In this document: positions 38,227 to 56,554 of the stretch, piece after piece | Layout of the letters: the number at the start of each line of letters is the position of its first letter | How positions within the stretch are numbered: the first letter of the stretch is position 1 | NCBI RefSeq assembly: GCF_965222475.1 | Contig: NZ_CBDCUB010000008.1 | Coordinates: 619,020-683,019, forward strand | Source of the DNA: Candidatus Palauibacter sp. | GTDB taxonomy: Bacteria > Gemmatimonadota > Gemmatimonadetes > Palauibacterales > Palauibacteraceae | Direction: 5' to 3' | Length of the DNA stretch: 64,000 nucleotides | The notes under the pieces: model-generated | Databases searched by the model: none | Told to the model about the DNA's origin: nothing | Seen by the model: only the letters and a program-made list of their open reading frames with translations | Position numbers and translations under genes: made by a program

Positions 38227-38488
38227 ATCGAGCCCTTGCACGCCCTGAAATGCCCGCTCATGTTATCCGGTCCCCTCCACCGGGGGAATTGGCGTTCCTG
38301 CACCCGGGAAGCGGACAGGGTGTCCCGAAACGGTGCGCTCGAACGTTATACACAGGAGCGGTAACGCGCAGCAGACTCTGACGGCTTGTTTTCGGACGCG
38401 GTGTATCGACCCGGCCGCGCCGACGAGGGGAGCACCTCTCGAATAGTTCCGGGTCCTGGAGGATCCCACTGCCACAGGAGGGTGATCC

Positions 38489-41400
38489 ATGTTGTTTGAC
38501 TTGTCAGGAAGGCGGAGGCGCGTGAGCGCGCTGGCCGCCACCGCAGTGAGCGCCTGGCTCTTTATCGGTGCGGCTCCGCTGCTCGCCCAGGGGGCGGTGT
38601 CGGGGACGGTGACCGACGCGGAGTCGCTCGCCCCGGTAGCGGGCGCGCAGATGTTCGTAGCGGGTACGGTGATCGGCACGCTGTCGGGCCCGGAGGGCAC
38701 GTACCGCATGGAAGGGGTGCCGGCGGGCGAGCAGACGGTGACGGTGCGTCTGATCGGCTATCGCGAGCTCTCTCAGACGGTGACGGTCCAGTCGGGGCAG
38801 GTGGCCACGGCGGACTTCTCGGTGCAGCAGACGGCGCTGCGGATTCAGGACATCGTGGTCACGGGGGTGGTCGGCGCGACGCCGCAGGTGAAGCTCCCGT
38901 TCACGGTGGAGCGTCTCTCGGCGCAAGACCTCCCGGTCCCGGCCGCGGACGCCTCTTCGCTGCTCGCGGGTAAGGCGGCGGGCGTATCGGTCGTGTCCGG
39001 CTCGGGCCAGCCCGGCCAGCCGGCCGACATCCTGCTCCGCGGCCCGACGTCCATCAACGCATCCGGCCGTTCGCAGGCGCCGCTGATCGTGATCGACGGC
39101 GTGATCCAGTCCGAGCAGGCATCGCTCTCCGACGTGGGCGCGCTGGATGTCGACCACGTGGAGATCGTGAAGGGCGCGGCGGCGGCTTCGCTGTACGGCT
39201 CGCGTGCGCAGAACGGCGTGATCCAGATCACGACGAAGCGCGGCACGGGTCTGCAGACGAACTCGCTGAACATCCTCACCCGGGGCGAGTACGGCTTCGG
39301 CCAGCTCGTCGGCGAAATCGGCCTCGTGCGATCGCACCCGTACACGATGAACGCCTCCGGGACGAAGTTCATCGACTCGACGGGCAGCGAGGTCGACTTC
39401 CGCGACCTCAACCGTCCGGGCTTCGGGTCGGCGATCCTCTACAACCAGATCATGCCGGGAGAGGCCGCGACGCCACAGACGGCGTTCGCGAACCAGGCTT
39501 TCCCGAACGACCTCTTCAACCACATGGACACGTTCTTCGATCCGGGCGAGACGGTGGACATCTACGGGGCGGTGACGGGCCGCTTCGGCGAGTCGAGCTT
39601 CCGGGTGAGCGTGGACCAGTTCCGCGAGGCCGGGGTGGTCAGCTGCGCGGTGTGCGCCGACAACCTCGGCGATCTGAACGCGGACCGCGTCGCGCAGGGG
39701 CTGTCGGCCTTGAACGTCGGGTTGCCGAATGACGAAGGCTACCAGCGGCAGAACGTGCGCCTCAACGTCGACACGCGTTTCGGCGACCTGGACATCGCGG
39801 CGAGCGGCTTCTACTCGCGCGCCGACCAGGACGACCGGGCCGTTTCCACGGGCGCCTTCTCCCGCCTGACCTTCATGTCGCCCGCGATCGACATCACCGA
39901 CATCGATCCGAGCGACGGGTATCCCGACATCAACGCGGACCCGCAGTCGATCGAGCCGAACCCGCTCTACCTGCTGGCCGTCAACGACAGCCGGGACAAG
40001 CGGACGCGGACGATGGGCTCGGTGGACCTCAACTACTCGCCCACGGGGCTCGACTGGCTGACGTTCGAGGCGAACGCCTCGTTCGACCGCACGGACTTCC
40101 GCGACTACAGGATCCGGCCCAAGAACGAGCGCACGGCCGGCGGCGGCGGCACCGGTGACTTCACCGGCGGCAGCCTGAGGGAGTTCAACTTCACGGACGA
40201 GGCGATCAACGCCTCGGTGACGCTCGGCGCCAGCCAGACGTTCATGGACGGCGATCTCACGGTGCGCGGGAAGGCCCGCTACCTGATCGAGGATCAGGAC
40301 TTCGGCTCGAACGGCGTGTTCGGGAGCCGCTTCTCGGTGCAGGACGTGCCGAACTTCGGCGCGATCATCGGCGAGACGAGCGGGAACAACCAGGTCCGCC
40401 AGATCAAGGCGGAGGGGCTGTTCGGGATCGCGAGCGCGGACTACCGCGGCCGCTACATCCTCGACGGTCTGGTCCGTCGCGACGGCTCCTCGCTGTTCGG
40501 TCCGGACGAGCGCTGGCAGACGTACTACCGGGGCTCGGTCGCGTGGCGGATCGCGCAGGAGGACTTCTGGAACATCGACGCGATCGATGAGTTCAAGCTG
40601 CGCTTCTCGCTGGGGACGGCGGGCGGCCGGCCCAACTTCTACGCCCAGTACGAGACGTTCGGCGTCTCGGCGGGCGCGATCTTCCCGGTCAACCTCGGGA
40701 ACACGGCGTTGAAGCCGGAGTTCACGACCGAGCGCGAGGCGGGGATGAACTTCGTGTTCTTCGAGAACATCGGGCTCGACCTCACGTATGCGTGGCAGAC
40801 GACGGACGACCAGCTGCTGCAGGTCCCGCAGCCGGCGTTCGTGGGCTTCTCGAGCCAGTGGCAGAACGCGGGCGAGATCTCGGCCCAGACGTACGAGGCG
40901 TCGCTCCGCTACGCGGCGATCGACGAACAGGACGTGGGCCTGCAGTTCCGCGTGAACTGGGACAAGACGAAGCAGGAGATCACGCGCCTCGACGTTCCCG
41001 CCTATCAGTTCAGCGCCTTCTACGTCGCCGAAGGTCGTCCGCTGGGCGAGATGTGGGGCGAAATCTGGGCCGAGAGTTGCGCGGACCTCGCGCCGGTCGG
41101 CATCTCCGCCTCCGACTGCGCCTCGAACTTCCAGGTGAACGACGACGGGCTGCTCGTCCCGACGGGCAGCGCCAACTTCACCGACGGGTTCAGCAGCGGG
41201 CTGTGGGGCACCCAGGTCATGGTCGCCACGGAGGACGGCGAGAACTCGTACCACTGGGGTCTTCCCATCAAGATCCGGGACTACTCTCCGGTGTGCGTGG
41301 AGAAGAATCCCGGCGACTACATGGAGAAGTGCCCGCTCGTCGAAGATCGCCTCCCGATCGGGAACACGACGCCCAACTTCAACACGTCCTTCGCGACCAA

Positions 41401-41872
41401 CTTCCGGTACAAGGGCCTGAGCCTGAACGCCCTGCTCGAGGCCTCCATGGGGCACCACATCTACAACGGGACGAGACAGTGGTCGCTTCGCGAGCTGCGT
41501 GGTGAGGACACGGACCAGACGGGCAAGTCCCTGGAACACAACAAGCCCGTCGGATACGCGTCGGCGATCTACTCGGTCAACGCCGACAACTCGTGGTTCA
41601 TTGAAGACGGCTCCTGGATCAAGGTCCGCGAGCTGTCACTCGGCTACACGCTGCCGGCGTCGATCGTGGAGAGCCTGTTCGGCGGCGTCTTCGACCGCGT
41701 GACGATCAACGCGATCGGTCGCAACCTGTTCACGATCACCGATTACCGCGGCTACGATCCCGAGGTCGGCGGCGGCGGCGGCCAGCTGGGAAGCACGGCG
41801 ATCAACGCCCAGGACAACTTCGCATATCCGAACTTCCGGACGTTCACCTTCTCGGCGGAACTGGTCTTCTAG
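38489..41872 (+). CDS. SusC/RagA-like TonB-dependent outer-membrane receptor, copy 1
   Basis: 1127 aa with signal peptide, N-terminal carboxypeptidase-regulatory-like domain (GAVSGTVTDAESLAPVAGAQMFVAGTV…TVRLIGYRE), plug (…GVSVVSGSGQPG…LLRGPTSIN…PLIVIDGV…) and C-terminal …YPNFRTFTFSAELVF. Confidence 0.85.
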   Translation: MLFDLSGRRRRVSALAATAVSAWLFIGAAPLLAQGAVSGTVTDAESLAPVAGAQMFVAGTVIGTLSGPEGTYRMEGVPAGEQTVTVRLIGYRELSQTVTVQSGQVATADFSVQQTALRIQDIVVTGVVGATPQVKLPFTVERLSAQDLPVPAADASSLLAGKAAGVSVVSGSGQPGQPADILLRGPTSINASGRSQAPLIVIDGVIQSEQASLSDVGALDVDHVEIVKGAAAASLYGSRAQNGVIQITTKRGTGLQTNSLNILTRGEYGFGQLVGEIGLVRSHPYTMNASGTKFIDSTGSEVDFRDLNRPGFGSAILYNQIMPGEAATPQTAFANQAFPNDLFNHMDTFFDPGETVDIYGAVTGRFGESSFRVSVDQFREAGVVSCAVCADNLGDLNADRVAQGLSALNVGLPNDEGYQRQNVRLNVDTRFGDLDIAASGFYSRADQDDRAVSTGAFSRLTFMSPAIDITDIDPSDGYPDINADPQSIEPNPLYLLAVNDSRDKRTRTMGSVDLNYSPTGLDWLTFEANASFDRTDFRDYRIRPKNERTAGGGGTGDFTGGSLREFNFTDEAINASVTLGASQTFMDGDLTVRGKARYLIEDQDFGSNGVFGSRFSVQDVPNFGAIIGETSGNNQVRQIKAEGLFGIASADYRGRYILDGLVRRDGSSLFGPDERWQTYYRGSVAWRIAQEDFWNIDAIDEFKLRFSLGTAGGRPNFYAQYETFGVSAGAIFPVNLGNTALKPEFTTEREAGMNFVFFENIGLDLTYAWQTTDDQLLQVPQPAFVGFSSQWQNAGEISAQTYEASLRYAAIDEQDVGLQFRVNWDKTKQEITRLDVPAYQFSAFYVAEGRPLGEMWGEIWAESCADLAPVGISASDCASNFQVNDDGLLVPTGSANFTDGFSSGLWGTQVMVATEDGENSYHWGLPIKIRDYSPVCVEKNPGDYMEKCPLVEDRLPIGNTTPNFNTSFATNFRYKGLSLNALLEASMGHHIYNGTRQWSLRELRGEDTDQTGKSLEHNKPVGYASAIYSVNADNSWFIEDGSWIKVRELSLGYTLPASIVESLFGGVFDRVTINAIGRNLFTITDYRGYDPEVGGGGGQLGSTAINAQDNFAYPNFRTFTFSAELVF

Positions 41873-41976
41873 ACCTCAACCTGTTGACAGCGGCGGGCCC
41901 CGCCCTCTCCGGAGGGCGGGGCGCTCCCGGGTTTCGACGAACCGACGGGAGATCCCGATTGCATTGGAGGAGAAGA

Positions 41977-43698
41977 ATGAAGAACAAGCTGGTACCCACA
42001 GCCTTCGCGCTGGCGATGCTGGTCGGCTCTACGGGTTGCGACCTCCAGGTCGACAACCCGAACGAGCCGGACCGCGCGCGCGCTCTGGCCGGGCCGGATG
42101 ATGTGGAGACGCTCATTGCGAGCTCCTTCCAGAAGGTCTGGGAGGTCGGGCATTACTGGAACAACGCGAACTTCGCCTTCGGTCACATGGCGAGCCGCCA
42201 CACGGCGACGTGGGGCAACATGGGGATGAACGACCTCGGCCGTGAGCCGCGGGAGACGCTCCCCAACTCGCCCTCGTATCGCTGGTCCTACGTCTTCGAG
42301 GCGAACTGGGGCGACACGTACGGCGGCATTTCGGCCGCGTCGGACGGGATCCGGGCCATCGATTCCGGTCTGGAGATCGGACCGGGCGGCGATCGCAACA
42401 CCCGTGCGCGTGCCTTCGCCCAGACGAGCCAGGCGATTCTGAGCTGCCTGCTCGCGCTGTGGTACGACCAGGCGTTCATCGTCGACGAGACGGTCGACCT
42501 CTCCGGCGAGCTCGAGACGGTCGACTACAACGCGACGTTCAGCTACGCCATGGGCAAGCTGGACGAGGCCGAGTCGGCCGCCCGTTCCGCCTCGTTCGAC
42601 CTCGAGGATACGTGGATCAACGGCAACTCCTGGAGTAACAACGAGCTTGCGGACTACCTCGTGAGCTGGAAAGCGCGCTGCGCGGCGAACCTGCCGCGGA
42701 CGGATGCCGAGGCGGCGGGCTCGAACTGGAGCCAGATCATCGCGAACGCGCAGAACGGAATCCGCGACGTCGTCGTGCTCGGCGAGGACTCCTCGTCCGA
42801 CACCGCGTGGTTCGACGGCCTCAAGTCGCTCATGCAGGAGAACGAGACCTGGCACCGGATGCACATGGACTGGGTCGGCATGGCGGACCAGAGCGGCGAG
42901 TATCAGGACTGGCTGTCGACGCCGACGGAGCAGCGCACGGCGCGCCTGCTGACGTTCGGCGATGACATGCGCTTCCCCCCGCAGAACCTGGAAGGGACGA
43001 CCTCCGACGTGGTGAGTCCGTCCGTCGCGTCCTACGGGCCGCGGTCGCGCTTCAACGCGACGATCATCTTCCGTCCCGAGCGCGGTACGTATCGCCAGTC
43101 GCACTACGGCGACATGCGCTACGACGCGTACACGCAGAGCTGCAGCTTCTGCTTCTTCGGCGACATGGAGCACATGACGTCGCAGGAGATGGACGCCTAC
43201 GTCGCCGAGGGCCATTACCGCATGGGCAACTTCGCGGGCGCGGCGGACATCGTGAACCGGACGCGCACGGAGGCGGGTCTGCCGGCGGCGCCGGCGAACC
43301 CGACGGATGCGGTGCCGTCGAACGGGGCGGGCGAGTGCACGCCGCGCAAGCGATACGACGTGCGGGGACGCTGCGGCAACCTGCGCGATGCGATGTGGTT
43401 CGAGCACTTCGAGACCGTGTTCAACGTGTTCGGCGGGCTCGAGCACTGGCACGGGCGTCGCAACGACCTCCTGCCGGCGGGGACGGCGCTGCAGTTGCCG
43501 ATGCCGGCGGCGGACCTCGAGGTCCTGCAGCGGGACATCTACACGTTCGGTGGAGTAGGCGGAGTGAGTTCGGCTCCCAACCCGATTCCGCCGTCCGTGG
43601 TTCCAGGCAACCTGAACTCCGCGCTGGAGCGGGCGGCCTACTCGCTGGCCCGTCTCAAGGCGGATCGGGTCGCGAGGACGAGTCTCGTCCGGCGCTAG
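41977..43698 (+). CDS. SusD/RagB-like outer-membrane lipoprotein, copy 1 (ORF track starts at 41884)
   Basis: MKNKLVPTAFALAMLVGSTGCDLQ lipoprotein signal; about 570 aa; immediately downstream of the SusC-like gene; paralogous to 47661.. and 53132... Confidence 0.65.
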   Translation: MKNKLVPTAFALAMLVGSTGCDLQVDNPNEPDRARALAGPDDVETLIASSFQKVWEVGHYWNNANFAFGHMASRHTATWGNMGMNDLGREPRETLPNSPSYRWSYVFEANWGDTYGGISAASDGIRAIDSGLEIGPGGDRNTRARAFAQTSQAILSCLLALWYDQAFIVDETVDLSGELETVDYNATFSYAMGKLDEAESAARSASFDLEDTWINGNSWSNNELADYLVSWKARCAANLPRTDAEAAGSNWSQIIANAQNGIRDVVVLGEDSSSDTAWFDGLKSLMQENETWHRMHMDWVGMADQSGEYQDWLSTPTEQRTARLLTFGDDMRFPPQNLEGTTSDVVSPSVASYGPRSRFNATIIFRPERGTYRQSHYGDMRYDAYTQSCSFCFFGDMEHMTSQEMDAYVAEGHYRMGNFAGAADIVNRTRTEAGLPAAPANPTDAVPSNGAGECTPRKRYDVRGRCGNLRDAMWFEHFETVFNVFGGLEHWHGRRNDLLPAGTALQLPMPAADLEVLQRDIYTFGGVGGVSSAPNPIPPSVVPGNLNSALERAAYSLARLKADRVARTSLVRR

Positions 43699-43775
43699 GA
43701 TCCGACGCCAGCGGGTTGCGGGGGGCGTGAGCCCTCCGCGACCACGCTTCATACAGCGATGTTGCCGGAGTTCAC

Positions 43776-43828
43776 GCACCTCCGGGCCAGGCCTTTCAGG
43801 GCCAGGCTCGGAGGTGCGTTGTTTTCGG
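43776..43828 (+). terminator. rho-independent terminator-like hairpin followed by a T-run, after the copy 1 susD-like gene
   Basis: GCACCTCCGGGCCAGGCC-tttcag-GGCCAGGCTCGGAGGTGC then gttgttttcgg. Confidence 0.5.
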
Positions 43829-44189
43829 CTTCAGCGGGGGTCGTCGTCGGGGAAGGGCCGCGGTCTTGTCACGGTCGCGGGGTCATGAAACGTTTAGGGT
43901 GAGGATATCCTCGGCGAACACGGAGCCTGGACGGGCTTCCCTGGCGTCCGGGGAGCGCGCCCTGGATTCCCGGGGCCCACGGAGGACGGCTCTTGCAGAG
44001 ACTTCTTCGCAGACAGCAACCACGCACCTTCGCGCCACGCCCGCGGGCGGATGATGCGGATGATGCGGGGTGCGTTTTTTTGCAGTGATTTCTCGACCCG
44101 GCGTGTCGGCCCGGCCGTGTCGAGCGGGGGCGAGCGCCCCCGGAATTGCGGGCCGCAGGGGAGGATCCCGCTTGCACAGGAGGTGATCC

Positions 44190-47100
44190 ATGCTGTTTGA
44201 CTTGTCAGGAGGGCGGAAGCGCGTGAGCGCGCTGGCCGCCACCGCAGTGAGCGCCTGGCTCTTTATCGGTGCGGCTCCGCTGCTCGCCCAGGGGGCGGTG
44301 TCGGGGACGGTGACCGACGCGGAGTCGCTCGCCCCGGTAGCGGGCGCTCAGGTGTTCGTAGCGGGTACGGTGATCGGCACGCTGTCGGGCCCGGAGGGCA
44401 CGTACCGCCTCGAGGGCGTGCCCGCGGGCCAACAGACGGTGAGCGTGCGTCTGATCGGCTATCGCGAGCTCTCTCAGACGGTGACGGTCCAGTCGGGGCA
44501 GGTGGCCACGGCGGACTTCTCCGTGGAGCAGACGGCGCTGCGGATTCAGGACATCGTGGTCACGGGGGTGGTCGGCGAGACGCCGCAGGTGAAGCTCCCG
44601 TTCACGGTGGAGCGTCTCTCGGCGCAGGACTTTCCGGTCCCGGCGGCCGATGTCTCTTCGCTGCTGACCGCGAAGGCGGCGGGCGTATCCGTGGTTTCCG
44701 GTTCGGGCCAGCCCGGCGCGGAGGCTTCGGTCCTGCTGCGCGGCCCGACCTCGATCAACTCGTCCGGCCGCTCGCTGGGACCGCTGATCGTGATCGACGG
44801 CGTGATCCAGTCCGAGAGCGCGACGCTCTCCGACGTGGGCGCGCTGGATGTCGACCACGTGGAGATCGTGAAGGGCGCGGCGGCGGCGTCGCTGTACGGC
44901 TCGCGCGCGCAGAACGGCGTGATCCAGATCACGACGAAGCGCGGCACGGGTCTGCAGACGAACTCGCTCAACATCCTCGTGCGAGGCGAATACGGGATGG
45001 GCCAGCTCGTCGGCGACGTCGGACTGACACGCTCGCATCCGTACCTGATGAACTCGTCCGGGACGAAGTTCATCGACTCCGACGGGAACGAGGTGGACTT
45101 CACCGACCTGAGCCGCCCCGGTTTCGGAGCCCCGGTCCTCGCGAACCAGATCAACCCGGACGAGACGGGCGATTCCTTTACGTCGTTCGCGAACCAGGCT
45201 TTCCCGCACGAGCTGTTCGACCACATGGACACGTTCTTCGATCCGGGCGAGACGACGGACGTCTACGGGGCGGTGACGGGCCGCTTCGGCGAGTCGAGCT
45301 TCCGGGTGAGCGTGGACCAGTTCATGGAGGGCGGCGTCGTGCGCTGCGCACCGTGTATCGACAACCTCGCCTCGCTCAACACCGACCGGGTCGCCCAGGG
45401 GCTGACCGCCTTCGACGTGGGGCTTCCGGATGATGACGGCTACAACCGGCAGAACGTGCGCCTGAACGTGGACACGCGCTTCGGCGACCTGGACATCGCG
45501 GCGAGCGGCTTCTACTCGCGTGCGAACCAGGATGACAAGGCCGTGGCGAACAGCGCCTTCAGCCAGCTGACCTTCGCGTCTCCCGCGGTCGACCTCACGC
45601 AGATCGATCCGACGGACGGCTACCCGCTCATCGATGCCGACACGCAGTCGATCTCGTCCAATCCGCTGTACCTGCTCGCGGTCGTCGACAGCCGCGACAA
45701 GCGGACGCGGACGATGGGCTCGGTGGACCTCAACTACTCGCCGACGGGACTCGACTGGCTGACGCTCGAGGCGAACGCCTCGTTCGACCGCACGGACTTC
45801 TACGACTACACGCTCTTTCCGAAGAACGAGAAGACGCGAGAGGGACCGACCGGCGGCAGCCTGCGCGAGTACAACTACACCGATGAGGCGATCAACGCCT
45901 CGGTGACGCTCGGCGCCAGTCAGACCTTCATGGACGGCAATCTGACCGCCCGCGGGAAGGTCCGCTACCTGATCGAGGACCAGGCCTTCGGTGCGAACGG
46001 CGTGTTCGGAAGCCAGTTCTCGGTGCAGGACGTGCCGAACTTCGGCGCGATCATCGGCGCGACGACCGGGAACAACCAGGTCCGCGAGATCAAGGCGGAG
46101 GGTCTGTTCGGGATCGCGAGCGTGGACTACCGCGGCCGTTACATCCTCGACGGTCTGATCCGTCGCGACGGCTCCTCGCTGTTCGGGCCGGACGAGCGCT
46201 GGCAGACATACTACCGGGGCTCGGTCGCGTGGCGGATCGCGCAGGAGGACTTCTGGAACATCGACGCGATCGACGAGTTCAAGCTGCGCTTCTCGCTGGG
46301 GACGGCGGGCGGCCGGCCGAACTTCTTCGCCCAGTATGAAACGTTCGGTATTCAGGGCGGCGCGATCTTCCCGGTCAACCTCGGGAACACGGCGTTGAAG
46401 CCGGAGTTCACGACGGAACGCGAGGCCGGGATGAACTTCGTGTTCTTCGACAATCTGGGTCTCGACCTGACGTACGCCTGGCAGACGACGGACGACCAGT
46501 TGCTCCGGGTGCCACAGCCGGCGTTCGTGGGTTTCTCGAGCCAGTGGCAGAACGCGGGCGCGATCGCGGCGCAGACGTACGAGGCGTCGCTCCGCTACGC
46601 GCCGATCGACACGCAGGACATGGGCCTGCAGTTCCGCGTGAACTGGGATCGGACCCGGCAGGAGATCACGCGGCTGGACGTACCCCCTTACCAGCAGGGG
46701 ACGTTCTTCGTCGCCGAGGGTCGCCCGCTGGGCGAGATGTGGGGCCATGTGCTGGCGAGGACATGCTCGGACCTTTCGCCGATCGGCGTCTCGGCCTCGG
46801 ACTGCAACGCGAACTTCCGGGTGAACGACGACGGGCTGCTCGTATGGACGGGCGGCGCCGATTTCACCGAGGGGTTCAGCAGCCGTCTGTGGGGCACCAC
46901 GGGCGACGTGACCACGGACACCGGTGACCAGTCCTTCGGCTGGGGCCTCCCGGTCAAGGTTCTGGACTACTCGCCGGCTTGTGTGGCGAAGAACCCGTCC
47001 AACTTCACGGACAAGTGCCAGCTCACGGACATCCTGCCGTTCGGGAACACGACGCCGGACTTCAACGTTTCCTTCGGATCGAACTTCCGGTACAAGAGCC

Positions 47101-47555
47101 TGAACGTGAACGCCCTGGTCGAGTCGTCGATGGGCCACTCGATCTACAACAACACGGCGCAGTGGTCCCTTCGGGATGACCGCGGCGAGGATGTGGACCA
47201 GACGGGCAAGCCGCTCGAGTTCAACAAGTCCATCGGGTACGTGGCGGGGGTCTACCTGTCGAACAACGACAACGACTGGTTCCGCGAGGACGGCGACTGG
47301 ATCAAGATTCGCGAGTTGTCGGTCGGCTACACGCTGCCCGAGTCGATGATGGGAAGCCTGTTCGGCGACGTGTTCGACCGGATCACGCTGAACCTCATCG
47401 GCCGCAACCTCCTCACGATCACCGATTACCGGGGATACGATCCCGAGGTCGGACGATCCGGCGGGGAAATCGCAAGTTCGACGCTGCAGAGATACGACAA
47501 CTTCGGCTATCCGAACTTCCGGACGTTCACCTTCTCGGCCGAACTGGTCTTCTGA
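44190..47555 (+). CDS. SusC/RagA-like TonB-dependent outer-membrane receptor, copy 2
   Basis: 1121 aa. The first about 75 codons are nearly identical at nucleotide level to copies 1 and 3; same domain order. Confidence 0.85.
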   Translation: MLFDLSGGRKRVSALAATAVSAWLFIGAAPLLAQGAVSGTVTDAESLAPVAGAQVFVAGTVIGTLSGPEGTYRLEGVPAGQQTVSVRLIGYRELSQTVTVQSGQVATADFSVEQTALRIQDIVVTGVVGETPQVKLPFTVERLSAQDFPVPAADVSSLLTAKAAGVSVVSGSGQPGAEASVLLRGPTSINSSGRSLGPLIVIDGVIQSESATLSDVGALDVDHVEIVKGAAAASLYGSRAQNGVIQITTKRGTGLQTNSLNILVRGEYGMGQLVGDVGLTRSHPYLMNSSGTKFIDSDGNEVDFTDLSRPGFGAPVLANQINPDETGDSFTSFANQAFPHELFDHMDTFFDPGETTDVYGAVTGRFGESSFRVSVDQFMEGGVVRCAPCIDNLASLNTDRVAQGLTAFDVGLPDDDGYNRQNVRLNVDTRFGDLDIAASGFYSRANQDDKAVANSAFSQLTFASPAVDLTQIDPTDGYPLIDADTQSISSNPLYLLAVVDSRDKRTRTMGSVDLNYSPTGLDWLTLEANASFDRTDFYDYTLFPKNEKTREGPTGGSLREYNYTDEAINASVTLGASQTFMDGNLTARGKVRYLIEDQAFGANGVFGSQFSVQDVPNFGAIIGATTGNNQVREIKAEGLFGIASVDYRGRYILDGLIRRDGSSLFGPDERWQTYYRGSVAWRIAQEDFWNIDAIDEFKLRFSLGTAGGRPNFFAQYETFGIQGGAIFPVNLGNTALKPEFTTEREAGMNFVFFDNLGLDLTYAWQTTDDQLLRVPQPAFVGFSSQWQNAGAIAAQTYEASLRYAPIDTQDMGLQFRVNWDRTRQEITRLDVPPYQQGTFFVAEGRPLGEMWGHVLARTCSDLSPIGVSASDCNANFRVNDDGLLVWTGGADFTEGFSSRLWGTTGDVTTDTGDQSFGWGLPVKVLDYSPACVAKNPSNFTDKCQLTDILPFGNTTPDFNVSFGSNFRYKSLNVNALVESSMGHSIYNNTAQWSLRDDRGEDVDQTGKPLEFNKSIGYVAGVYLSNNDNDWFREDGDWIKIRELSVGYTLPESMMGSLFGDVFDRITLNLIGRNLLTITDYRGYDPEVGRSGGEIASSTLQRYDNFGYPNFRTFTFSAELVF

Positions 47556-47660: not shown

Positions 47661-49388
47661 ATGAAGAGGAAGCTGACACTTCCGGCCTTTGCGCTGGCGC
47701 TCGTGGTCGGCTTTTCGGGCTGTGACCTGCAGGTCAGCAACCCGAACCAGCCGGACCGGGGGCGCGCGCTGGCCAGCCCGGACGACGTGGAGTCGCTCAT
47801 CGCGAGCACCTATCAGCAGGTCTGGGCGATGGGACACTACTGGAACAACGCGAACTTCGCGTTCAACCACATGTCGAGCCGGCATACGGCGACGTGGGGC
47901 AACAACGGGCAGAACGACCTCGGTCGCGAGCCCCGCGAGCCGATGCCGAACTCGACCTCGTATCGCTGGTCGTATGTGTTCTCGGAGCACTGGCAGGACG
48001 CCTACGGCGGCATCTCGGCCGCTTCGGACGGGGTCCGGGCCATCGACGAGGGGCTGGAGATCGGCCCCGGCGGCGAACGGAACGCGCGGGCGCGCGCCTT
48101 CGCCGTCGCGAGCCAGGCCATGCTGAGCTGCCTGCTTTCGCTCTGGTACGACCAGGCCTTCATCGTCGACGAGACGACGGACCTCACCGGCGAACTCGAG
48201 ACGGTCGACTACAACGCCATGTTCGCCTACGCGATGGGCAAGCTGGACGAAGCGGAGTCCGCCACGCGGGCGGCATCGTTCAGCATCGAGGATGCGTGGA
48301 TCAACGGGAACCCGTGGAGCAACCAGGAGCTCGCCGACTATCTGGTGAGCTGGAAGGCGCGCTGCGCCGCCAATCTGCCGCGGACCGATGCGGAGGCGGC
48401 GGGAGCGAACTGGAGCCAGATCATCGCGAACGCGCGTAGCGGCATGCAGAACGTCGTCGTGATCGGCGAAGACCGTTCGTCGGACACCTCCTGGTTCGAC
48501 GACCTGAAGGCGAAGGCGCAGCAGAACGGCACCTGGCACCGCATGCACATGGACTGGGTCGGCATGGCGGACCAGAGCGGCGAGTATCAGGACTGGCTCT
48601 CGCTCCCGACTCAGAGCCGGACCGCGCGCAAGATGACCTTCGGCGATGACAAGCGCTTCCCGCCCGTCAACGAGGACGGAACACTCGGGGAGAGCGTGAG
48701 TCCCACGGCCGCGTCCACGGGCCCGCGCCATCGCTACAACGCGAACATCATCTTCATCGCCTCGCGGGGGACGTATCGGCAGTCGCACTACGGCGACGCG
48801 CGGTACGATCACTACACCCTGAGCTGCAACTTCTGCGAGTCCGGGGACATGGAGGAGATGACCGGGCAGGAGTTGAGCCACTACATCGCCGAGGGCCTCT
48901 ACCGGATGGGGGACTTCGGGGGTGCGGCGGACATCATCAACGTGACCCGGATGGAGGCCGGACTGCCGCCGGCGCCGTCGAACCCGACGGATCCGGTGCC
49001 GTCGAACGGGGCGGGCGAATGCACGCCGCGCAAGCGGTACGACGTGCGGGGACGCTGCGGCAACCTGCGCGACGCGCTGTGGTTCGAGCACTTCGAGAAC
49101 GTGTTCAACGTGTTCGGTGGGCTGGAGTTCTTCCACGGCCGCCGCAACGACATCCTCCCGACGGGGACGGCGCTGCAGCTACCCATGCCGGCCGCGGACC
49201 TCGAGGTGCTGCAGCGGGACATCTACACCTTCGGCGGAAGCGCCGGCGGCGGAGCGGCGAATCCGACGCCTCCGTCGATCGTCCCGGGCAGCCTCGACGC
49301 CGCGCTGGAGCGGGCGGCCTTCTCGCTGTATCGCCTCCGGGCGCGGCAGAAAGCCGCGCGCGCGAACCAGGACCTCGTGGTCCGCTAG
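47661..49388 (+). CDS. SusD/RagB-like outer-membrane lipoprotein, copy 2
   Basis: MKRKLTLPAFALALVVGFSGCDLQ…; paralog of copies 1 and 3. Confidence 0.65.
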   Translation: MKRKLTLPAFALALVVGFSGCDLQVSNPNQPDRGRALASPDDVESLIASTYQQVWAMGHYWNNANFAFNHMSSRHTATWGNNGQNDLGREPREPMPNSTSYRWSYVFSEHWQDAYGGISAASDGVRAIDEGLEIGPGGERNARARAFAVASQAMLSCLLSLWYDQAFIVDETTDLTGELETVDYNAMFAYAMGKLDEAESATRAASFSIEDAWINGNPWSNQELADYLVSWKARCAANLPRTDAEAAGANWSQIIANARSGMQNVVVIGEDRSSDTSWFDDLKAKAQQNGTWHRMHMDWVGMADQSGEYQDWLSLPTQSRTARKMTFGDDKRFPPVNEDGTLGESVSPTAASTGPRHRYNANIIFIASRGTYRQSHYGDARYDHYTLSCNFCESGDMEEMTGQELSHYIAEGLYRMGDFGGAADIINVTRMEAGLPPAPSNPTDPVPSNGAGECTPRKRYDVRGRCGNLRDALWFEHFENVFNVFGGLEFFHGRRNDILPTGTALQLPMPAADLEVLQRDIYTFGGSAGGGAANPTPPSIVPGSLDAALERAAFSLYRLRARQKAARANQDLVVR

Positions 49389-49628
49389 TTGGAATTCGGG
49401 ACCTCGGCAGGCTTGGGGGGCGTGAGCCCCCCGCCCTGTCGCGGGGCGGATATCGTGGCCATGTTTGATCGGCAGGACGCGGCGGACGACACTTTTCGCT
49501 GTGCCGAGTGTCACGATTACGAGGTCACGGATCGTTTAATTTAATATGGAGCGTGGTGCCGGGTTCCCTGGAGGGGTTGGGGGCCATGAAGGTTGTCTCT
49601 CTACATACGTATCTCGGAGGAAGTCGTA

Positions 49629-49681
49629 CGCACCTCCTCGTCACGCCCCATGCGGGCGATGACGAAGGGTGCGTTTTTTTG
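49629..49681 (+). terminator. hairpin plus T7 run between susD-like copy 2 and susC-like copy 3
   Basis: CGCACCTCCTCGTCACGCCCCATGCGGGCGATGACGAAGGGTGCG followed by TTTTTTT. An analogous gggtgcgttttttt lies at about 44067-44082 upstream of copy 2. Confidence 0.45.
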
Positions 49682-49705
49682 TCCCGCTGGCACAGGAGGT
49701 GATTC

Positions 49706-52700
49706 ATGTTGTCTGACTTGTCCGGAAGGCGGAGGCGCGTGAGCGCGCTGGCCGCCACCGCAGTGAGCGCCTGGCTCTTTATCGGCGCGGCTCCGCTGCT
49801 CGCCCAGGGGGCGGTGTCGGGGACGGTGACCGACGCGGAGTCGCTCGCCCCGGTAGCGGGCGCGCAGATGTTCGTAGCGGGTACGGTGATCGGCACGCTG
49901 TCGGGCCCGGAGGGCACGTACCGCATGGAAGGGGTGCCGGCGGGCGAGCAGACGGTGACGGTGCGTCTGATCGGCTATCGCGAGCTCTCTCAGACGGTGA
50001 CGGTCCAGTCGGGGCAGGTGGCCACGGCGGACTTCTCGGTGCAGCAGACGGCGCTGCGGATTCAGGACATCGTGGTCACGGGGGTGGTCGGCGAGACGCC
50101 GCAGGTGAAGCTCCCGTTCACGGTGGAGCGTCTGTCGGCGCAGGACATCCCGGTCCCGGCCGCGGACGCCTCTTCGCTGCTGGCGGGCAAGGCGGCGGGC
50201 GTATCGGTGGTTTCCGGCTCGGGCCAGCCCGGCCAGGCGGCGGGGATCCTGCTCCGCGGCCCGACCTCGATCAACTCGTCCGGCCGCAGCATGCAGCCTC
50301 TGATCGTGATCGACGGCGTGATCCAGTCCGAGAGCGCCACGCTCGCCGACGTGGGCGCGCTGGATGTCGACCATGTGGAGATCGTGAAGGGCGCGGCGGC
50401 GGCGTCGCTGTACGGCTCGCGTGCGCAGAACGGCGTGATCCAGATCACGACGAAGCGCGGCACGGGTCTGCAGACGAACTCGCTGAACATCCTGGCCCGG
50501 GGCGAGTACGGGATGGGCCAGCTCGTCGGCGACATCGGTCTTGTGCAGTCGCACCCGTACACGATGAACGCGGCCGGGACGAAGTTCATCGACACCGATG
50601 GGAACGAGGTCGACTTCCGCGACCTCAATCGCCAGGGTTTCGGTTCTGCGCTCCTCTACAACCAGATCAACGTCGGCGAGCCCGGCACGACGTCGACGGC
50701 GTTCGCGAACCAGGCCTTCCCCGGCGAGCTGCTCGACCACATGGACACGTTCTTCGATCCGGGCGAGACGATGGACATCTACGGGGCGGTGACAGGCCGC
50801 TTCGGCGAGTCGAGCTTCCGGGTGAGCGTGGACCAGTTCCGCGAGGCCGGCGTGGTGCGCTGCTCGGCGTGCATCGAGAACCTCGCCGACCTCAATTCGG
50901 ACCGCGTCGCGCAGGGGCTGACCGCCTTTGACGTCGGCGTGCCCGACGACGAGGGCTACCAGCGGCAGAACGTGCGGCTCAACGTGGACACGCGCTTCGG
51001 CGACCTGGACATCGCGGCGAGCGGCTTCTACTCGCGCGCCGACCAGGACGACAAGGCCGTCGCTACGAGCGCCTTTGCGCGGCTCACCTTCGTCTCTCCG
51101 GCGATCGATATCTCGGGCATCGATCCGTTCGACGGATACCCCGACATCGACGCGGACCCGCAGTCGATCGAGGCCAACCCGCTCTACCTGCTGGCGGTCA
51201 ACGACAGCCGGGACAAGCGGACGCGGACGATGGGTTCGGTGGACCTCAACTACTCGCCCACGGGGCTCGACTGGCTGACGCTCGAGGCGAACGCCTCGTT
51301 CGACCGCACGGACTTCCGCGACTACAGGATCCGGCCCAAGAACGAGCGCACCTCCGCCGCCAGCGGCACGGGGGAGGTCACCGGCGGCAGCCTGAGGGAG
51401 TTCAACTTCACGGACGAGGCGATCAACGCCTCGGTGACGCTCGGCGCGAGCCAGGCGTTCATGGACGGCGATCTCACGGCCCGCGGGAAGGTCCGCTACC
51501 TGATCGAGGACCAGAGCTTCGGCTCGAACGGCGTGTTCGGGAGCCGCTTCTCGGTGCAGGACGTGCCGAACTTCGGCGCGATCATCGGTGAGACGAGCGG
51601 GAACAACCAGGTCCGTTCGATCAAGGCGGAGGGGCTGTTCGGGATCGCGAGCGTGGACTACCGCGGCCGCTACATCCTCGACGGTCTGATCCGTCGCGAC
51701 GGCTCCTCGCTGTTCGGCCCGGACGAGCGCTGGCAGACGTACTACCGGGGCTCGGTCGCGTGGCGGATCGCGCAGGAGGACTTCTGGAACATCGACGCGA
51801 TCGATGAGTTCAAGCTGCGCTTCTCGCTGGGGACGGCGGGCGGCCGGCCCAACTTCTTCGCCCAGTACGAGACGTTCGGCGTCTCGGCGGGCGCGATCTT
51901 CCCGATCAACCTCGGGAACCGGGCGTTGAAGCCGGAGTTCACGACCGAGCGCGAGGCGGGGATGAACTTCGTGTTCTTCGAGAACCTCGGGCTCGACCTC
52001 ACCTACGCGTGGCAGACGACGGACGACCAGCTGCTGCTCGTCCCGCAGCCGGCGTTCGTGGGCTTCTCGAACCAGTGGCAGAACGCGGGCGCGATCTCGG
52101 CTCAGACGTACGAGGTGTCGCTCCGCTACGCGCCGATCGACGAACAGGACGTGGGCCTGCAGTTCCGCGTTAACTGGGACAAGACGAAGCAGGAGGTCAC
52201 GCGGCTGGACGTCCCGGACTTCACGCAGGGGACGTTCTTCGTCTCCGAGGGTCGTCCGCTGGGCGAGCTGTGGGGTGAAGTGCTGGCCACGAGCTGCGAG
52301 CAGCTCGCGCCGGTCGGTATCTCCGCCTCCACCTGCGCCTCGAACTTCCAGGTGAACGACGACGGGCTGCTCGTGCCGACGGGCAGTTCCGATTTCACCG
52401 ATGGGTTCAGCAGCGGCCTCTGGGGCACGACCGTCACGGTGGACGCCGAGGAAGGGGAGCGAACGTATCCCTGGGGGCACCCGATCTACGTGCAGGACCG
52501 TTCGCCGGCATGTGTGGCGAAAAACCCCACGGACTACATGGACAAGTGCCGCCTCAGCGAGTTCCTGCCCTACGGGAACACGACGCCGGACTTCAACGCC
52601 TCGTTCGCGACGAACTTCCGGTACAAGGGCCTGAGCCTGAACGCCCTCCTCGAGTCGTCCGTGGGTCACAAGGTCTACAACAACACGGCGCAGTGGGCGC

Positions 52701-53086
52701 TGCGCGAGCTGCGCGGCGAGGACGTGGACCAGACGGGCAAGCCGCTCGAGCACAACAAGCCGACCGGATACGCCTCGGTCATCTACAACGTCGGCTCGGA
52801 CAACTCCTGGTTCGCCGAGGATGGGGACTGGCTCAAGATCCGTGAGCTGTCGCTCGGCTACACGCTGCCGCAGGGGATGATCGAAGGCCTGTTCGGGGGC
52901 GTGTTCGACCGGGTCACGCTGAACCTGATCGGTCGCAACCTGATCACCCTCACCGGCTACCGCGGCTACGACCCAGAGGTCGGCCGGAGCGGTGGATCGT
53001 TGGGGAGCGAGACCCTCAACCGCGTGGACAGCTTCGGGTATCCGAACTTCCGCACCTTCACTTTCTCGGCGGAACTGGTCTTCTGA
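49706..53086 (+). CDS. SusC/RagA-like TonB-dependent outer-membrane receptor, copy 3
   Basis: 1126 aa; about 85% identical to copy 1, with divergence in discrete patches. Confidence 0.85.
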   Translation: MLSDLSGRRRRVSALAATAVSAWLFIGAAPLLAQGAVSGTVTDAESLAPVAGAQMFVAGTVIGTLSGPEGTYRMEGVPAGEQTVTVRLIGYRELSQTVTVQSGQVATADFSVQQTALRIQDIVVTGVVGETPQVKLPFTVERLSAQDIPVPAADASSLLAGKAAGVSVVSGSGQPGQAAGILLRGPTSINSSGRSMQPLIVIDGVIQSESATLADVGALDVDHVEIVKGAAAASLYGSRAQNGVIQITTKRGTGLQTNSLNILARGEYGMGQLVGDIGLVQSHPYTMNAAGTKFIDTDGNEVDFRDLNRQGFGSALLYNQINVGEPGTTSTAFANQAFPGELLDHMDTFFDPGETMDIYGAVTGRFGESSFRVSVDQFREAGVVRCSACIENLADLNSDRVAQGLTAFDVGVPDDEGYQRQNVRLNVDTRFGDLDIAASGFYSRADQDDKAVATSAFARLTFVSPAIDISGIDPFDGYPDIDADPQSIEANPLYLLAVNDSRDKRTRTMGSVDLNYSPTGLDWLTLEANASFDRTDFRDYRIRPKNERTSAASGTGEVTGGSLREFNFTDEAINASVTLGASQAFMDGDLTARGKVRYLIEDQSFGSNGVFGSRFSVQDVPNFGAIIGETSGNNQVRSIKAEGLFGIASVDYRGRYILDGLIRRDGSSLFGPDERWQTYYRGSVAWRIAQEDFWNIDAIDEFKLRFSLGTAGGRPNFFAQYETFGVSAGAIFPINLGNRALKPEFTTEREAGMNFVFFENLGLDLTYAWQTTDDQLLLVPQPAFVGFSNQWQNAGAISAQTYEVSLRYAPIDEQDVGLQFRVNWDKTKQEVTRLDVPDFTQGTFFVSEGRPLGELWGEVLATSCEQLAPVGISASTCASNFQVNDDGLLVPTGSSDFTDGFSSGLWGTTVTVDAEEGERTYPWGHPIYVQDRSPACVAKNPTDYMDKCRLSEFLPYGNTTPDFNASFATNFRYKGLSLNALLESSVGHKVYNNTAQWALRELRGEDVDQTGKPLEHNKPTGYASVIYNVGSDNSWFAEDGDWLKIRELSLGYTLPQGMIEGLFGGVFDRVTLNLIGRNLITLTGYRGYDPEVGRSGGSLGSETLNRVDSFGYPNFRTFTFSAELVF

Positions 53087-53131
53087 TCAGAGAGATCCAG
53101 ACTTGGGCAACGAAGGAAAAACGGAGGTACG

Positions 53132-54859
53132 ATGAAAAGGAAGCTGACACTACCGGCCCTCGCGCTGGCGCTCGGCTTTACGGGTTGCGACCTGCAGGTC
53201 GACAACCCGAACGAGCCGGACCGCGCGCGCGCGCTGGCCGGGCCGGACGATGTGGAGACGCTGATTTCGAGCTCCTTCCAGAAGGTGTGGGAGATCGGGC
53301 ACTACTGGACCAACCCGAACTTCGCCTTCAACCACATGTCGAGCCGTCACACGGCGACGTGGGGCAACATGGGGATGAACGACCTCGGCCGTGAGCCGCG
53401 GGAGCCCCTGCCGAACGCGGCGTCGTACAGCCCCTCCTACGTCTTCGAGGCGAACTGGGGCGATGCGTACGGCGGCATCTCGGCCGCCTCGGACGGGATC
53501 CGGGCCATCGACGAGGGTCTGGAGATCGGACCGGGCGGGGAGCGGAACGCGCGCGCGCGGGCCTTCGCCGTCGCGAGCCAGGCCATGCTGAGCTGCCTGC
53601 TCTCCATGTGGTACGACCAGGCGTTCATCGTGGACGAGACGGTCGATCTCGGCGGTGAACTCGACACGGTCGACTACAACGCGGTCTTCGCGTACGCGAT
53701 GGGCAAGCTGGATGAAGCCGAGTCCGCGGTCCGGGCCGCGTCGTTCACGCTCCCGGAGACGTGGATCAACGGGAACGCGTGGAGCAACCAGGAGTTCGCC
53801 GACTATCTGGTGAGCTGGAAGGCGCGCTGCGCGGCGAACCTGCCGCGAACCGATGCCGAGGCGGCGGGCGCGAACTGGAGCCAGATCATCTCGAACGCCC
53901 AGAACGGCATGCGTGACGTCGTGGTGATCGGTGAAGACCGGTCGTCGGGCACGGCGTGGTGGGACGGTCTGAAGATCTTCGCGCAGGAGAACCGGACCTG
54001 GCACCGCATGCACATGGACTGGGTGGGCATGGCCGACCAGAGCGGCGAGTATCAGGACTGGCTCACCTTCCCCACGGAGCAGCGCACGGCGCGGAAGATG
54101 GCGTTCGGCGACGACCGGCGCTTCCCGGCGGTGAACGAGCACGGCACGCTCGGCGAGAGCGTGAGTCCCACGGCCGCCTCCACGGGTCCGGTGCACCGTT
54201 ACAACGCGACCGTGATCTTCCGGCCCGAACGCGGCACGTATCGTCAGTCGCACTACGGCGATGCCCGCTACGACCACTATACGCTCAGCTGCAGCCGGTG
54301 CGAGTTCGGCACCATGGAGCACATGACGTCGAACGAGTTCGAGCACTACATCGCCGAGGGTCACTACCGCATGGGCAACTTCGCGGGCGCCGCGGACATC
54401 ATCAACGTGACGCGGATGCAGGCGGGGCTGCCGCCCGCGCCGTCGAACCCGACGGACGCGGTGCCGTCGAACTCGGCGGGCGACTGCACGCCGCGCAAGC
54501 GGTACGACGTGCGGGGCCGCTGCGGCAACCTGCGCGACGCGATGTGGTTCGAGCACTTCGAGAACGTGTTCAACCTGTTCGGCGGGCTGGAGTTCTTCCA
54601 CGGGCGCCGCAACGACATCCTCCCGGCGGGGACGGCGCTGCAGCTGCCGATGCCGGCCGCGGACCTCGAAGTCCTGCAGCGGGACATCTACACATTCGGT
54701 GGCGGGGAGCCGAGTTCCGCGGGCGACCCGACGCCGCCGGCGATCGTGCCGGGAAGCCTGACCTCTGCGCTGGAGCGGGCGTCCTTCTCGCTCGAACGGC
54801 TGCGTGCGAGTCAGGCGGCCGCGCGCCGGGGCGGGCAAGCGACTCTGATCGTCCGCTAG
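53132..54859 (+). CDS. SusD/RagB-like outer-membrane lipoprotein, copy 3
   Basis: MKRKLTLPALALALGFTGCDLQ…; paralog of copies 1 and 2. Confidence 0.65.
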   Translation: MKRKLTLPALALALGFTGCDLQVDNPNEPDRARALAGPDDVETLISSSFQKVWEIGHYWTNPNFAFNHMSSRHTATWGNMGMNDLGREPREPLPNAASYSPSYVFEANWGDAYGGISAASDGIRAIDEGLEIGPGGERNARARAFAVASQAMLSCLLSMWYDQAFIVDETVDLGGELDTVDYNAVFAYAMGKLDEAESAVRAASFTLPETWINGNAWSNQEFADYLVSWKARCAANLPRTDAEAAGANWSQIISNAQNGMRDVVVIGEDRSSGTAWWDGLKIFAQENRTWHRMHMDWVGMADQSGEYQDWLTFPTEQRTARKMAFGDDRRFPAVNEHGTLGESVSPTAASTGPVHRYNATVIFRPERGTYRQSHYGDARYDHYTLSCSRCEFGTMEHMTSNEFEHYIAEGHYRMGNFAGAADIINVTRMQAGLPPAPSNPTDAVPSNSAGDCTPRKRYDVRGRCGNLRDAMWFEHFENVFNLFGGLEFFHGRRNDILPAGTALQLPMPAADLEVLQRDIYTFGGGEPSSAGDPTPPAIVPGSLTSALERASFSLERLRASQAAARRGGQATLIVR

Positions 54860-54914
54860 CCGTCCTCGGCGGGACGCCGCGTCCGGAGCCGCCTTCGGGC
54901 GAGTTCGGACCGAA

Positions 54915-54955
54915 GAGAGGCCACCGGGTTCGCCCGGTGGCCTCTTCTGTCTGTA
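54915..54955 (+). terminator. rho-independent terminator after the third susCD-like pair
   Basis: AGAGGCCACCGGG-ttcg-CCCGGTGGCCTCT, a perfect 13-bp stem, followed by TCTGTCTG. Confidence 0.6.
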
Positions 54956-55052
54956 AGAAACTGCGCGCCCGAGACGTTATGTTCGTTGTGTGGCGGACAT
55001 CGTCCGTGCCAGTCTCCGCACGCGAAGCCTGAGGCTTGACGAGGAGTTGTAG

Positions 55053-56478: not shown

Positions 56479-56554
56479 TCGAGGATCGAAGGGTTCTGAT
56501 GCGTACACAGCGGCCTGCCCCGGGCTGCCGGGATTCTGGCGACCATAATACCTC

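Follow-up and report, generated by a model that had tools for sequence, protein, structure and literature searches.

The 64-kb window analysed here, a stretch of Candidatus Palauibacter sp. DNA from contig NZ_CBDCUB010000008.1, carries in its tyrS-folK interval three consecutive plus-strand pairs of susC-like and susD-like genes, in the order C1D1-C2D2-C3D3 (Table 1). It is very probable that these pairs encode three old paralogous TonB-dependent outer membrane importers of the SusCD type, in which the lipoproteins (the "lids") come from a cryptic family, the duplications are old, the 5' ends of the receptor genes undergo gene conversion, and the loops of the three copies are distinct. A preliminary description of this DNA, made from the sequence alone, had proposed the tandem arrangement, and both coordinates and sizes were confirmed, with receptors of 1121-1127 aa and lipoproteins of 573-575 aa separated by 45-105 nt within each pair. 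By analogy with the solved SusCD and RagAB complexes, the lid would close over a ligand on the barrel and TonB would then pull the plug. New elements at these loci are a leader of ~100 nt, absent from Rfam, in which the ribosome-binding site is predicted to be sequestered, a conserved lipoprotein of 67 aa, and a recurrent plug-only protein. The Palauibacterales are a Gemmatimonadota order of marine, sediment, sponge and saline-soil habitats (PMC10469786).

The receptors are SusC/RagA-family proteins. All three score above the cutoff of NCBIfam model TIGR04056 (368.25 bits; scores in Table 1) over model positions 3-981 of 981, and Pfam places a CarbopepD_reg domain (PF13715, CarbopepD_reg_2) at residues 37-124 and a Plug domain (PF07715) at residues 134-244 in each of them, the N-terminal domain being followed by a TonB-box-like sequence, DIVVTGV. 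SusC/RagA chains were the sole matches of the receptors in phmmer searches of the Protein Data Bank (PDB), and the C2 protein is 100% identical to an NCBI entry named "SusC/RagA family TonB-linked outer membrane protein" from Candidatus Palauibacter sp. An AlphaFold (AF2) model of C2, with a predicted local distance difference test score (pLDDT) of 84.2, was compared with the PDB using Foldseek: the top 22 matches comprise all solved SusC/RagA chains (E 8.6e-76 to 7e-54, target template-modelling (TM) score 0.70-0.81), and the classical siderophore receptors rank after them (E ~1e-32).

The lipoproteins are far less easily recognized. D1-D3 gave no match at E<=0.01 to the Pfam SusD models (PF07980, PF12741, PF12771, PF14322) or to NCBIfam, and a single lid sequence found no useful match among PDB sequences. 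A profile of the family retrieved weak matches to three SusD-like chains, 3qnk (E 0.0088), 7bll (0.016) and 3snx (0.25), confined to a C-terminal AE...N..R motif. The AF2 model of D2, calculated from 67 homologs (pLDDT 84.9), matches SusD/RagB-type structures in all of the top 50 Foldseek hits to the PDB, with probability 1.00, a best E of 8.5e-9 and TM-scores of 0.4-0.6. Judged by predicted fold only, the D proteins are remote SusD-like lipoproteins, and the claim of the preliminary description that they are SusD-like held when put to structure prediction. The lipobox cysteine, Cys21, is invariant across the 67 homologs, and in most related loci with upstream sequence the D gene is the immediate downstream neighbor of a SusC-like gene.

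On the same structural grounds we regard the lids as a cryptic SusD-like family of the Gemmatimonadota that is unrecognized by the Pfam and NCBIfam models. Their nearest relatives, in Palauibacter and other Gemmatimonadota, are annotated as "hypothetical proteins"; every one of 120 listed homologs carries the name "hypothetical" and no precomputed Pfam domain. The family comprises 1,685 clusters at 50% identity (E<=1e-3) and, among species-representative genomes, is almost confined to the Gemmatimonadota. Two further arrangements of lid genes were observed. Two or three lid genes stand in tandem with no receptor gene between them in some Longimicrobium-type and other loci (L060 10001-15778, L038 344-4054, L056 10001-13249), and the lid domain also occurs at the C-terminal end of very long proteins (P0328, 1630 aa; P0345, 1560 aa; P0301, 1267 aa; P0246, 2634 aa), which may be SusC-SusD fusions or merged gene calls.

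Similarity among the three copies is unevenly distributed along the genes. The start of C1 (38481-38780) is 95% identical to the corresponding stretch of C2 (44182-44481) and 99% identical to that of C3 (49698-49997); identity among the susC genes stays above 93% for about 400 nt, so that the near-identical 5' tract, put at 230 nt in the preliminary description, is longer than claimed, and the Shine-Dalgarno-ATG context noted there, CACAGGAGG(G)TGATYCATG, is present. The synonymous divergence (dS) is 0.00-0.13 over the first ~120 codons. The same description had both ends of the susC genes near-identical and the middle diverged. This is borne out at the 5' end; at the 3' end only the final 60 nt are alike (90-92%), and the last third is the most diverged part of the gene (70-80% nucleotide identity and a dS of 0.3-1.3, which also applies to the window with the conserved C-terminal strand). 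Because of this high divergence around it, the conserved C-terminal peptide is best explained by amino-acid constraint on the closing strand. A diverged middle is too simple a picture as well, since codons ~200-250 and ~575-800 are also 90-99% identical between paralogs, and C1 and C3 differ by a dS of 0.01-0.09 over codons ~480-800. Nor do the lipoprotein genes repeat the pattern, as had been supposed: they are 80-83% identical overall (paralog dS 0.41-0.52), have no identical ends, and diverge most at their 3' ends (61-71%).

The history of the array was traced through related loci (numbered with the prefix L), gathered by looking up exact proteins and by scanning species-representative genomes. 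Fifteen Palauibacter genomes hold these same three pairs at one site, tyrS-folK; two genomes have two pairs, orthologous to pairs 1 and 3, another two have one pair, and deeper Gemmatimonadota have a single pair. Even in L070, with a lid that is only 43% identical, the order PBP1-tyrS-C-D-small open reading frame (ORF)-plug protein-folK-aroB is kept. In neighbor-joining trees, sequences cluster by array position for susC codons 801-1121 and for the lid genes, whereas for susC codons 1-135 they cluster by genome or lineage. Identities point in the same direction: in the 5' segment of susC, paralogs within a genome are 87-99% identical, as against 82-88% between the window and its orthologs in distant species, and the 3' segment shows the opposite (75-81% for paralogs, 79-87% for orthologs). 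The duplications are thus old, since the 3' segments and lids group by position and paralogs are there less alike than orthologs. For conversion itself we relied on this ortholog/paralog comparison because the 5' tract has too few variable sites for a run test. Collapse of the assembly was considered as a source of the identical 5' ends and rejected, as 15 independent assemblies, including several complete chromosomes, all show the same pattern.

These data give the following history. The whole lineage has one ancestral pair between tyrS and folK; in Palauibacter two tandem duplications, both old, raised the number to three pairs that were inherited thereafter as orthologs, and ongoing gene conversion keeps the first ~400 nt of susC alike within each genome, with sporadic further tracts. 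The converted stretch codes for the signal peptide and the N-terminal domain, the region of the TonB box and the beginning of the plug. In the window genome it also spans the upstream leader of C1 and C2, and a further C1-C3 conversion tract covers codons ~480-800. Concerted evolution of the ends, as first proposed, accordingly stands for the 5' end of susC and finds no signal at its 3' end or in the D genes. A search of the literature found no relevant report on tandem paralogy of susC genes or on conversion between them. Separately, a fourth, orphan lid paralog (L005 10001-11758, from the genome of L001), 68% identical to D2, follows a 280-aa ORF without a Pfam match in a transposase-rich region with a Cas2-like gene and a methylase-HNH gene; this locus looks like a decayed or relocated pair.

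Differences among the three receptors concentrate in the inferred extracellular loops. With the 22 barrel strands assigned from the DSSP string of the C2 model and the 22-strand rule, sites that differ among the copies make up 38% of the loops (169/444), 15% of the strands, 22% of the periplasmic turns, 11% of the plug and 5% of the N-terminal domain (loops versus strands plus turns, Fisher p ~1e-13), in agreement with the enrichment that the preliminary description had expected. The variable patch singled out there exists (C2 residues ~856-948) and lies in L9, the largest loop (residues 830-948, 119 aa). As an example of diversification between the copies it is not supported, because L9 is fast in orthologs too (omega, that is dN/dS, of 0.23-0.42, where dN is the nonsynonymous divergence); the loops that are paralog-specific and conserved among orthologs are L1 and L10. 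The dN in L10 (988-1036) is 0.21-0.34 between paralogs as against 0.02-0.075 between orthologs at similar dS, and in L1 (273-353) 0.14-0.21 as against 0.04-0.105; within ortholog groups both loops have an omega of 0.05-0.20, and 12 of the 49 residues of L10 are fixed differences between the three ortholog groups. This pattern carries, on sequence grounds, the signature of settled functional differences rather than of drift or an arms race, and it suggests three transporters with related but distinct ligand specificities, i.e., sub-functionalization. Diversification in the sense of positive selection is not supported, as dN/dS lies below 1 in all windows and all loop classes. The lids vary most in a non-helical insert (~326-400) and in the low-confidence C-terminal tail.

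What the array imports can be addressed through the neighbors of related pairs; no pointer to a substrate was found in the window itself or in the syntenic loci. In a tally of 110 neighbors of distant pairs no enzyme class is enriched, only CarbopepD_reg/Plug proteins recur, and no carbohydrate-active family is present among the top 25 families. The locus of one distant lid homolog (34% identical; L071 5443-13985, and L072) holds an extracytoplasmic function (ECF) sigma factor, FecR and a 1188-aa SusC-like gene together with Peptidase_S51, a beta-lactamase-fold protein, two Peptidase_M14 genes and a gamma-glutamyltranspeptidase, and looks like a peptide-utilization locus; another distant pair (L064) is followed by Peptidase_M28. 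The fold matches of D2 do not separate glycan-binding from peptide-binding lids. In three Longimicrobium-type loci trpE stands beside the pair; this adjacency was discarded as a clue to the substrate, as it looks like local synteny and not function. We lean slightly toward a non-glycan oligomer such as peptides, and commit ourselves, by analogy with the solved systems, only to an array of putative TonB-dependent importers for an oligomeric nutrient with three related specificities.

Several points weigh against this reading. The short SusC/RagA signature TIGR04057 is narrowly missed by the receptors (42.2-43.5 bits, under the 46.2 cutoff, E ~1e-11), and the lid matches solved SusD proteins with moderate TM-scores only. 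The case for transport, for a ligand and for the formation of a complex is made throughout by analogy, and the modeled outward-facing topology needs residues 718-731 to form a hairpin inside loop L7. Extracellular loops are the fastest-evolving parts of any such receptor, so that their enrichment alone is no proof of different specificities, and the dN/dS values are all below 1. A GENECONV-like longest-run permutation test was significant for C1-C3 (nt 159-337, p ~0.005) and weak overall, with low power at the 5' end, where few sites vary. The lean toward peptides, finally, draws on two or three distant loci only, and no peptidase was found in the window or in the syntenic loci.

Alternative explanations of the array can be judged against the same observations. 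That this is an ordinary glycan-utilization system, with its hydrolases and regulator elsewhere in the genome and the three pairs importing three related oligosaccharides, is a possibility to which we give some weight, while thinking it doubtful. The best structural matches of the lid include the glycan-binding SGBP-A, the BT1762 levan lid and SusD itself, but RagB and BT2263 are matched as well, so the matches do not discriminate; SusCD pairs with carbohydrate-active enzymes (CAZymes) are reported across the Gemmatimonadota (PMC10469786), but no CAZyme occurs within ~10 kb in the window, in the gene lists of L001, L003, L004 and L070, or among the top neighbor families, and the pair is embedded in a conserved housekeeping neighborhood. 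Distinctly less probable is that the loops and lids diverge to escape phages, bacteriocins or host recognition, leaving three redundant importers. It would account for the fast evolution of L9 in paralogs and orthologs alike (omega 0.23-0.59 over both), and it agrees with the solved BfUbb-ButCD complex among the fold matches and with the origin of many Palauibacter genomes from sponges and corals; SusCD complexes are known toxin targets. Against it, L1 and L10 are conserved within ortholog groups and different between them, which fits fixed functional differences better, dN/dS reaches 1 in no window, and all three pairs are kept in 15 species. The history first proposed, a recent triplication with both gene ends homogenized and a ligand-contacting middle under active diversification, is hardly credible: the first ~400 nt of susC (95-100% identical), its last 60 nt and the variable loops had seemed to favor it, yet orthology by position across 15 Palauibacter genomes and the dS of the D paralogs contradict a recent origin, the 3' third of susC is its most diverged part at high dS, the D genes lack end homogenization, and dN/dS is below 1 everywhere.

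The array is, judging from comparative sequence analysis, not without regulation, as a conserved structured leader precedes C1 and C2. The Shine-Dalgarno-ATG context proved to be the tail end of a far larger conserved element, covering ~100 nt 5' of the susC ATG, which is conserved from Palauibacter to L070 (6382-6485) and in 12 metagenome contigs recovered by an exact 22-mer, and is found at L027-L032 and L073-L084. It comprises a hairpin of 8-11 bp (P1); a second hairpin with variable sequence and conserved pairing (P2); a helix of 6-8 bp between the P1 loop, GACCCG, and a downstream CGGGTC (P3), which would form a pseudoknot or an alternative to P1; and, just before the ATG, an invariant helix GGATCCC/GGGnGATCC (P4) that pairs the Shine-Dalgarno sequence (GGAGGG in C1). 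Across 38 distinct leader sequences 95% of cells are paired, as against 35-55% with slid partners; 11 pairs are changed on both sides, and none of 500 shuffles reaches the observed values. P3, which lies outside the search model (R1), is 100% paired and shows A-U to G-C switches in three sequences, and RNAalifold recovered P1, P2 and P4 de novo from a plain MAFFT alignment. G-U wobbles occupy 47 of 1022 cells, fitting an RNA of the sense strand. At gathering thresholds Rfam 15 matched neither the leader nor the intergenic regions; at E<=1 it gave no match for 38200-38520 and 49380-49740, and for 43690-44220 chance-level matches only (E 0.17-0.99), none of them on the leader; a search with R1 upstream of distant Longimicrobiales and Gemmatimonadales pairs (31-35% lid identity) found no leader.

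The leader is not shared equally by the three copies. C3 retains only its last ~28 nt, and C2 genes lack the full leader outside the close relatives of the window genome and L018. As most other Palauibacter species carry the full leader at C1 only, the conversion tract has brought it to C2 in this genome. Since the last helix pairs the ribosome-binding site, translational control is implied, and at C1 and C2 a pseudoknotted leader would sequester this site and so govern translation. Whether this amounts to a new class of cis-regulatory RNA, a riboswitch or a translational switch operated by a protein or small RNA, that belongs to a Gemmatimonadota-specific SusCD-type importer with a cryptic lid and a small accessory lipoprotein, can be put forward tentatively, and we hold it possible rather than probable. 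It is unlikely, in our estimation, that the element instead acts at the DNA level, as a promoter or operator bound by a protein. In many genomes P1 is preceded, at a distance of only 8-12 nt, by a T-run that often comes with a small hairpin, and if this were a full terminator the promoter would fall inside the element; P3 and P4 are nearly invariant, which leaves little covariation, and folding z-scores of single leader sequences are not significant. Against a DNA element stand the pairing of P1 and P2, which survives changes on both sides, the G-U wobbles, which pair only in sense-strand RNA, the co-varying arms of P3, which are distant from one another, and the exact pairing of P4 with the Shine-Dalgarno sequence next to the ATG.

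Terminator hairpins would punctuate the array. They were located by folding and by eye, as a terminator scan performed at chance level and missed them. T1, T2 and T3 share an end, GGTGCG plus a T-run, that occurs nowhere else in the window, and the ~200-nt intergenic inserts that hold T2 and T3 are present only in close relatives of the window genome. That each pair is followed by a hairpin and T-run, as had been described, is correct for D1 and D3; downstream of D2 the nearest hairpin (49415-49432) lacks a T-run, and the hairpin with T7 ends only 25 nt before the ATG of C3. Because no promoter fits between T3 and C3, C3D3 would have to depend on read-through of T3 for its expression. A box of the CGTTnnnnATAnAG type was noted by eye in the window and in most of 23 divergent loci, where it precedes the leader by 45-105 nt; from its sequence and position it may be a promoter. 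A scan for sigma-70 consensus promoters found none.

Table 1. Positions of the array, its putative regulatory elements and its neighboring genes in the window.
Feature	Position	Strand	Description
tyrS	37009-38226		Upstream of C1
Upstream box, CGTTnnnnATAnAG type	38341-38358	+	Candidate promoter element of the C1 unit; by eye
Leader copy 1	38392-38491	+	P1, P2, P3, P4; ends at the C1 ATG; model R1 95 bits
C1, susC-like 1	38489-41872	+	1127 aa; signal peptide, CarbopepD_reg N-terminal domain, plug, 22-strand barrel; TIGR04056 470.4 bits
D1, susD-like lipoprotein 1	41977-43698	+	573 aa; lipobox Cys; 77-80% identity to D2/D3
T1	43775-43825	+	Terminator-like hairpin and TTGTTTT after D1; surrounding 131 nt fold at -69.5 kcal/mol, z -4.75
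CGTTnnnnATAnAG-type box	43888-43910	+	Similar to the upstream box; by eye
T2	44024-44081	+	Second hairpin and T7, directly 5' of leader copy 2; from sequence and position; kept in closest relatives
Leader copy 2	44092-44192	+	Upstream of C2; model R1 73 bits; P3 arms with compensatory A-U to G-C
C2, susC-like 2	44190-47555	+	1121 aa; TIGR04056 463.5 bits; AF2 model
D2, susD-like lipoprotein 2	47661-49388	+	575 aa; AF2 model
CGTTnnnnATAnAG-type box	49530-49551	+	Similar to the upstream box; by eye
T3	49629-49680	+	Hairpin and T7, ends 25 nt before the C3 start codon; kept in closest relatives
C3, susC-like 3	49706-53086	+	1126 aa; TIGR04056 445 bits
D3, susD-like lipoprotein 3	53132-54859	+	575 aa
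T4	54915-54954	+	Terminator-like hairpin after D3; fold z -3.84
Small lipoprotein	55053-55256	+	67 aa; lipobox ATGC; conserved immediately 3' of the last pair
Barrel-less protein	55363-56478	-	371 aa; with signal peptide, one or more CarbopepD_reg-like regions and a plug-like domain; oriented convergently to the array
folK	56555-57118		Downstream, beyond the array

Two accessory genes accompany the array. The small lipoprotein follows the last pair in all Palauibacter loci examined; it is called and conserved in L001, L003, L004 and L070, where its counterpart has 71 aa, and is also found in L008 and L020. With its conserved motif DEPxNxNPGNSIVP it is a possible accessory subunit. The barrel-less protein matches the Pfam domains CarboxypepD_reg (1.5e-16) and Plug (8.7e-7), and of 39 related loci 20 have a homolog no more than 6 kb downstream of the D gene, which in 19 cases is convergent; such proteins recur even beside very distant pairs and are absent from one Palauibacter subgroup (L008/L020-type). 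A plus-strand ORF at 55291-56499 is spurious, being antisense to this plug-only gene.

The surroundings are those of a housekeeping region. The window is GC-rich (65-71% outside the rRNA genes), and the genes flanking the array, annotated outside the 18.9-33 kb interval of the window, encode a pyrimidine-nucleoside phosphorylase, PBP1, TyrS, FolK, AroB, an acyl-CoA synthetase and an NYN protein. Both neighbors named in the preliminary description, tyrS upstream and the plug-domain protein downstream, are present. Its statement that glycoside hydrolase, sigma and anti-sigma genes are lacking is likewise correct for the flanks, and a dedicated regulator (hybrid two-component, SusR-like or ECF sigma/anti-sigma) was not found among the flanking genes either; to call such genes defining for these loci was loose wording, the SusC/SusD pair itself being the defining feature. 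Farther upstream, 23S and 5S rRNA genes were observed at 26042-29264 (plus strand) with no 16S gene in 26 kb upstream, so that the 16S rRNA gene appears to be unlinked from the 23S, and an IS630-like DDE_3 transposase gene (29374-30504, minus strand) directly follows the 5S gene.

The closest known counterparts of these pairs are the SusCD systems and utilisomes of the Bacteroidota, such as SusC/SusD of Bacteroides thetaiotaomicron, the levan system BT1762-1763 and the dextran utilisome. They share with the Palauibacter pairs a barrel with CarbopepD_reg and plug domains and a SusD-fold lid encoded directly downstream, they are the best PDB fold matches, and TIGR04056 scores above its cutoff. 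The Palauibacter array differs in belonging to the Gemmatimonadota, in a lid that all Pfam SusD models miss, in the absence of adjacent hydrolases, surface glycan-binding proteins and regulators of the hybrid two-component, SusR or ECF kind, and in its position in a housekeeping neighborhood behind a structured leader. RagAB of Porphyromonas gingivalis and BT2261-2264 of B. thetaiotaomicron are SusCD-like systems without glycan enzymes, associated with peptide import or found peptide-bound in the crystal. They resemble the present array in lacking carbohydrate-active enzymes, our models match RagA/RagB and BT2263/BT2264 among other structures, and distant homologs of the Palauibacter lid stand among peptidases; BT2261-2264 moreover includes small accessory lipoproteins, a possible parallel to the 67-aa lipoprotein. 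In contrast to these systems, the Palauibacter loci hold no peptidase and three tandem paralogs instead of one pair, with 10-19% identity to RagA/RagB.

Tandem susC/susD pairs in polysaccharide-utilization loci of the Bacteroidota are thought to broaden or split the substrate range. The likeness lies in the adjacent paralogous pairs; the Palauibacter array differs in comprising three pairs without enzymes that are orthologous across the genus, with conversion limited to the 5' ~400 nt. Concerted evolution by partial gene conversion is known from paralogous outer membrane protein genes, for example babA/babB of Helicobacter, in which, as here, paralogs within a genome are closer than orthologs over part of the gene and exposed regions stay divergent; in Palauibacter the converted segment codes for the N-terminal and periplasmic portions, sometimes together with the regulatory leader, and there is no evidence of phase or antigenic variation. 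For the leader, riboswitch-controlled TonB-dependent receptors exist, e.g., the cobalamin riboswitch of btuB, as do pseudoknotted leaders that sequester the Shine-Dalgarno sequence. Shared features are a conserved structure directly 5' of a TonB-dependent receptor gene, a last helix that pairs the ribosome-binding site, and covarying helices; the present leader differs in that it has no Rfam match at E<=1 and in that its conserved nucleotides lie in P3, P4 and the P4 loop, not in junctions.

These observations bear on how outer membrane uptake is counted and understood in the Gemmatimonadota. SusD counts by Pfam models overlook the whole lid family, and because surveys of this kind miss its ~1,700 clusters, SusCD-type uptake in this phylum is probably under-counted. 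The Palauibacterales have been reported as comparatively poor in SusCD-type loci (PMC10469786), and the under-count probably extends to their sponge-, coral- and sediment-associated members. The array is further a case of partial concerted evolution, in which those parts of a transporter that face common partners (TonB, the periplasm, the regulatory leader) are homogenized within a genome and the exposed parts remain distinct and orthologous. For an uptake system without informative enzyme neighbors, the leader offers a testable route to its regulation and perhaps to its substrate; if the leader is indeed a new regulatory RNA, its effector would reveal what a widespread, unannotated uptake system imports.

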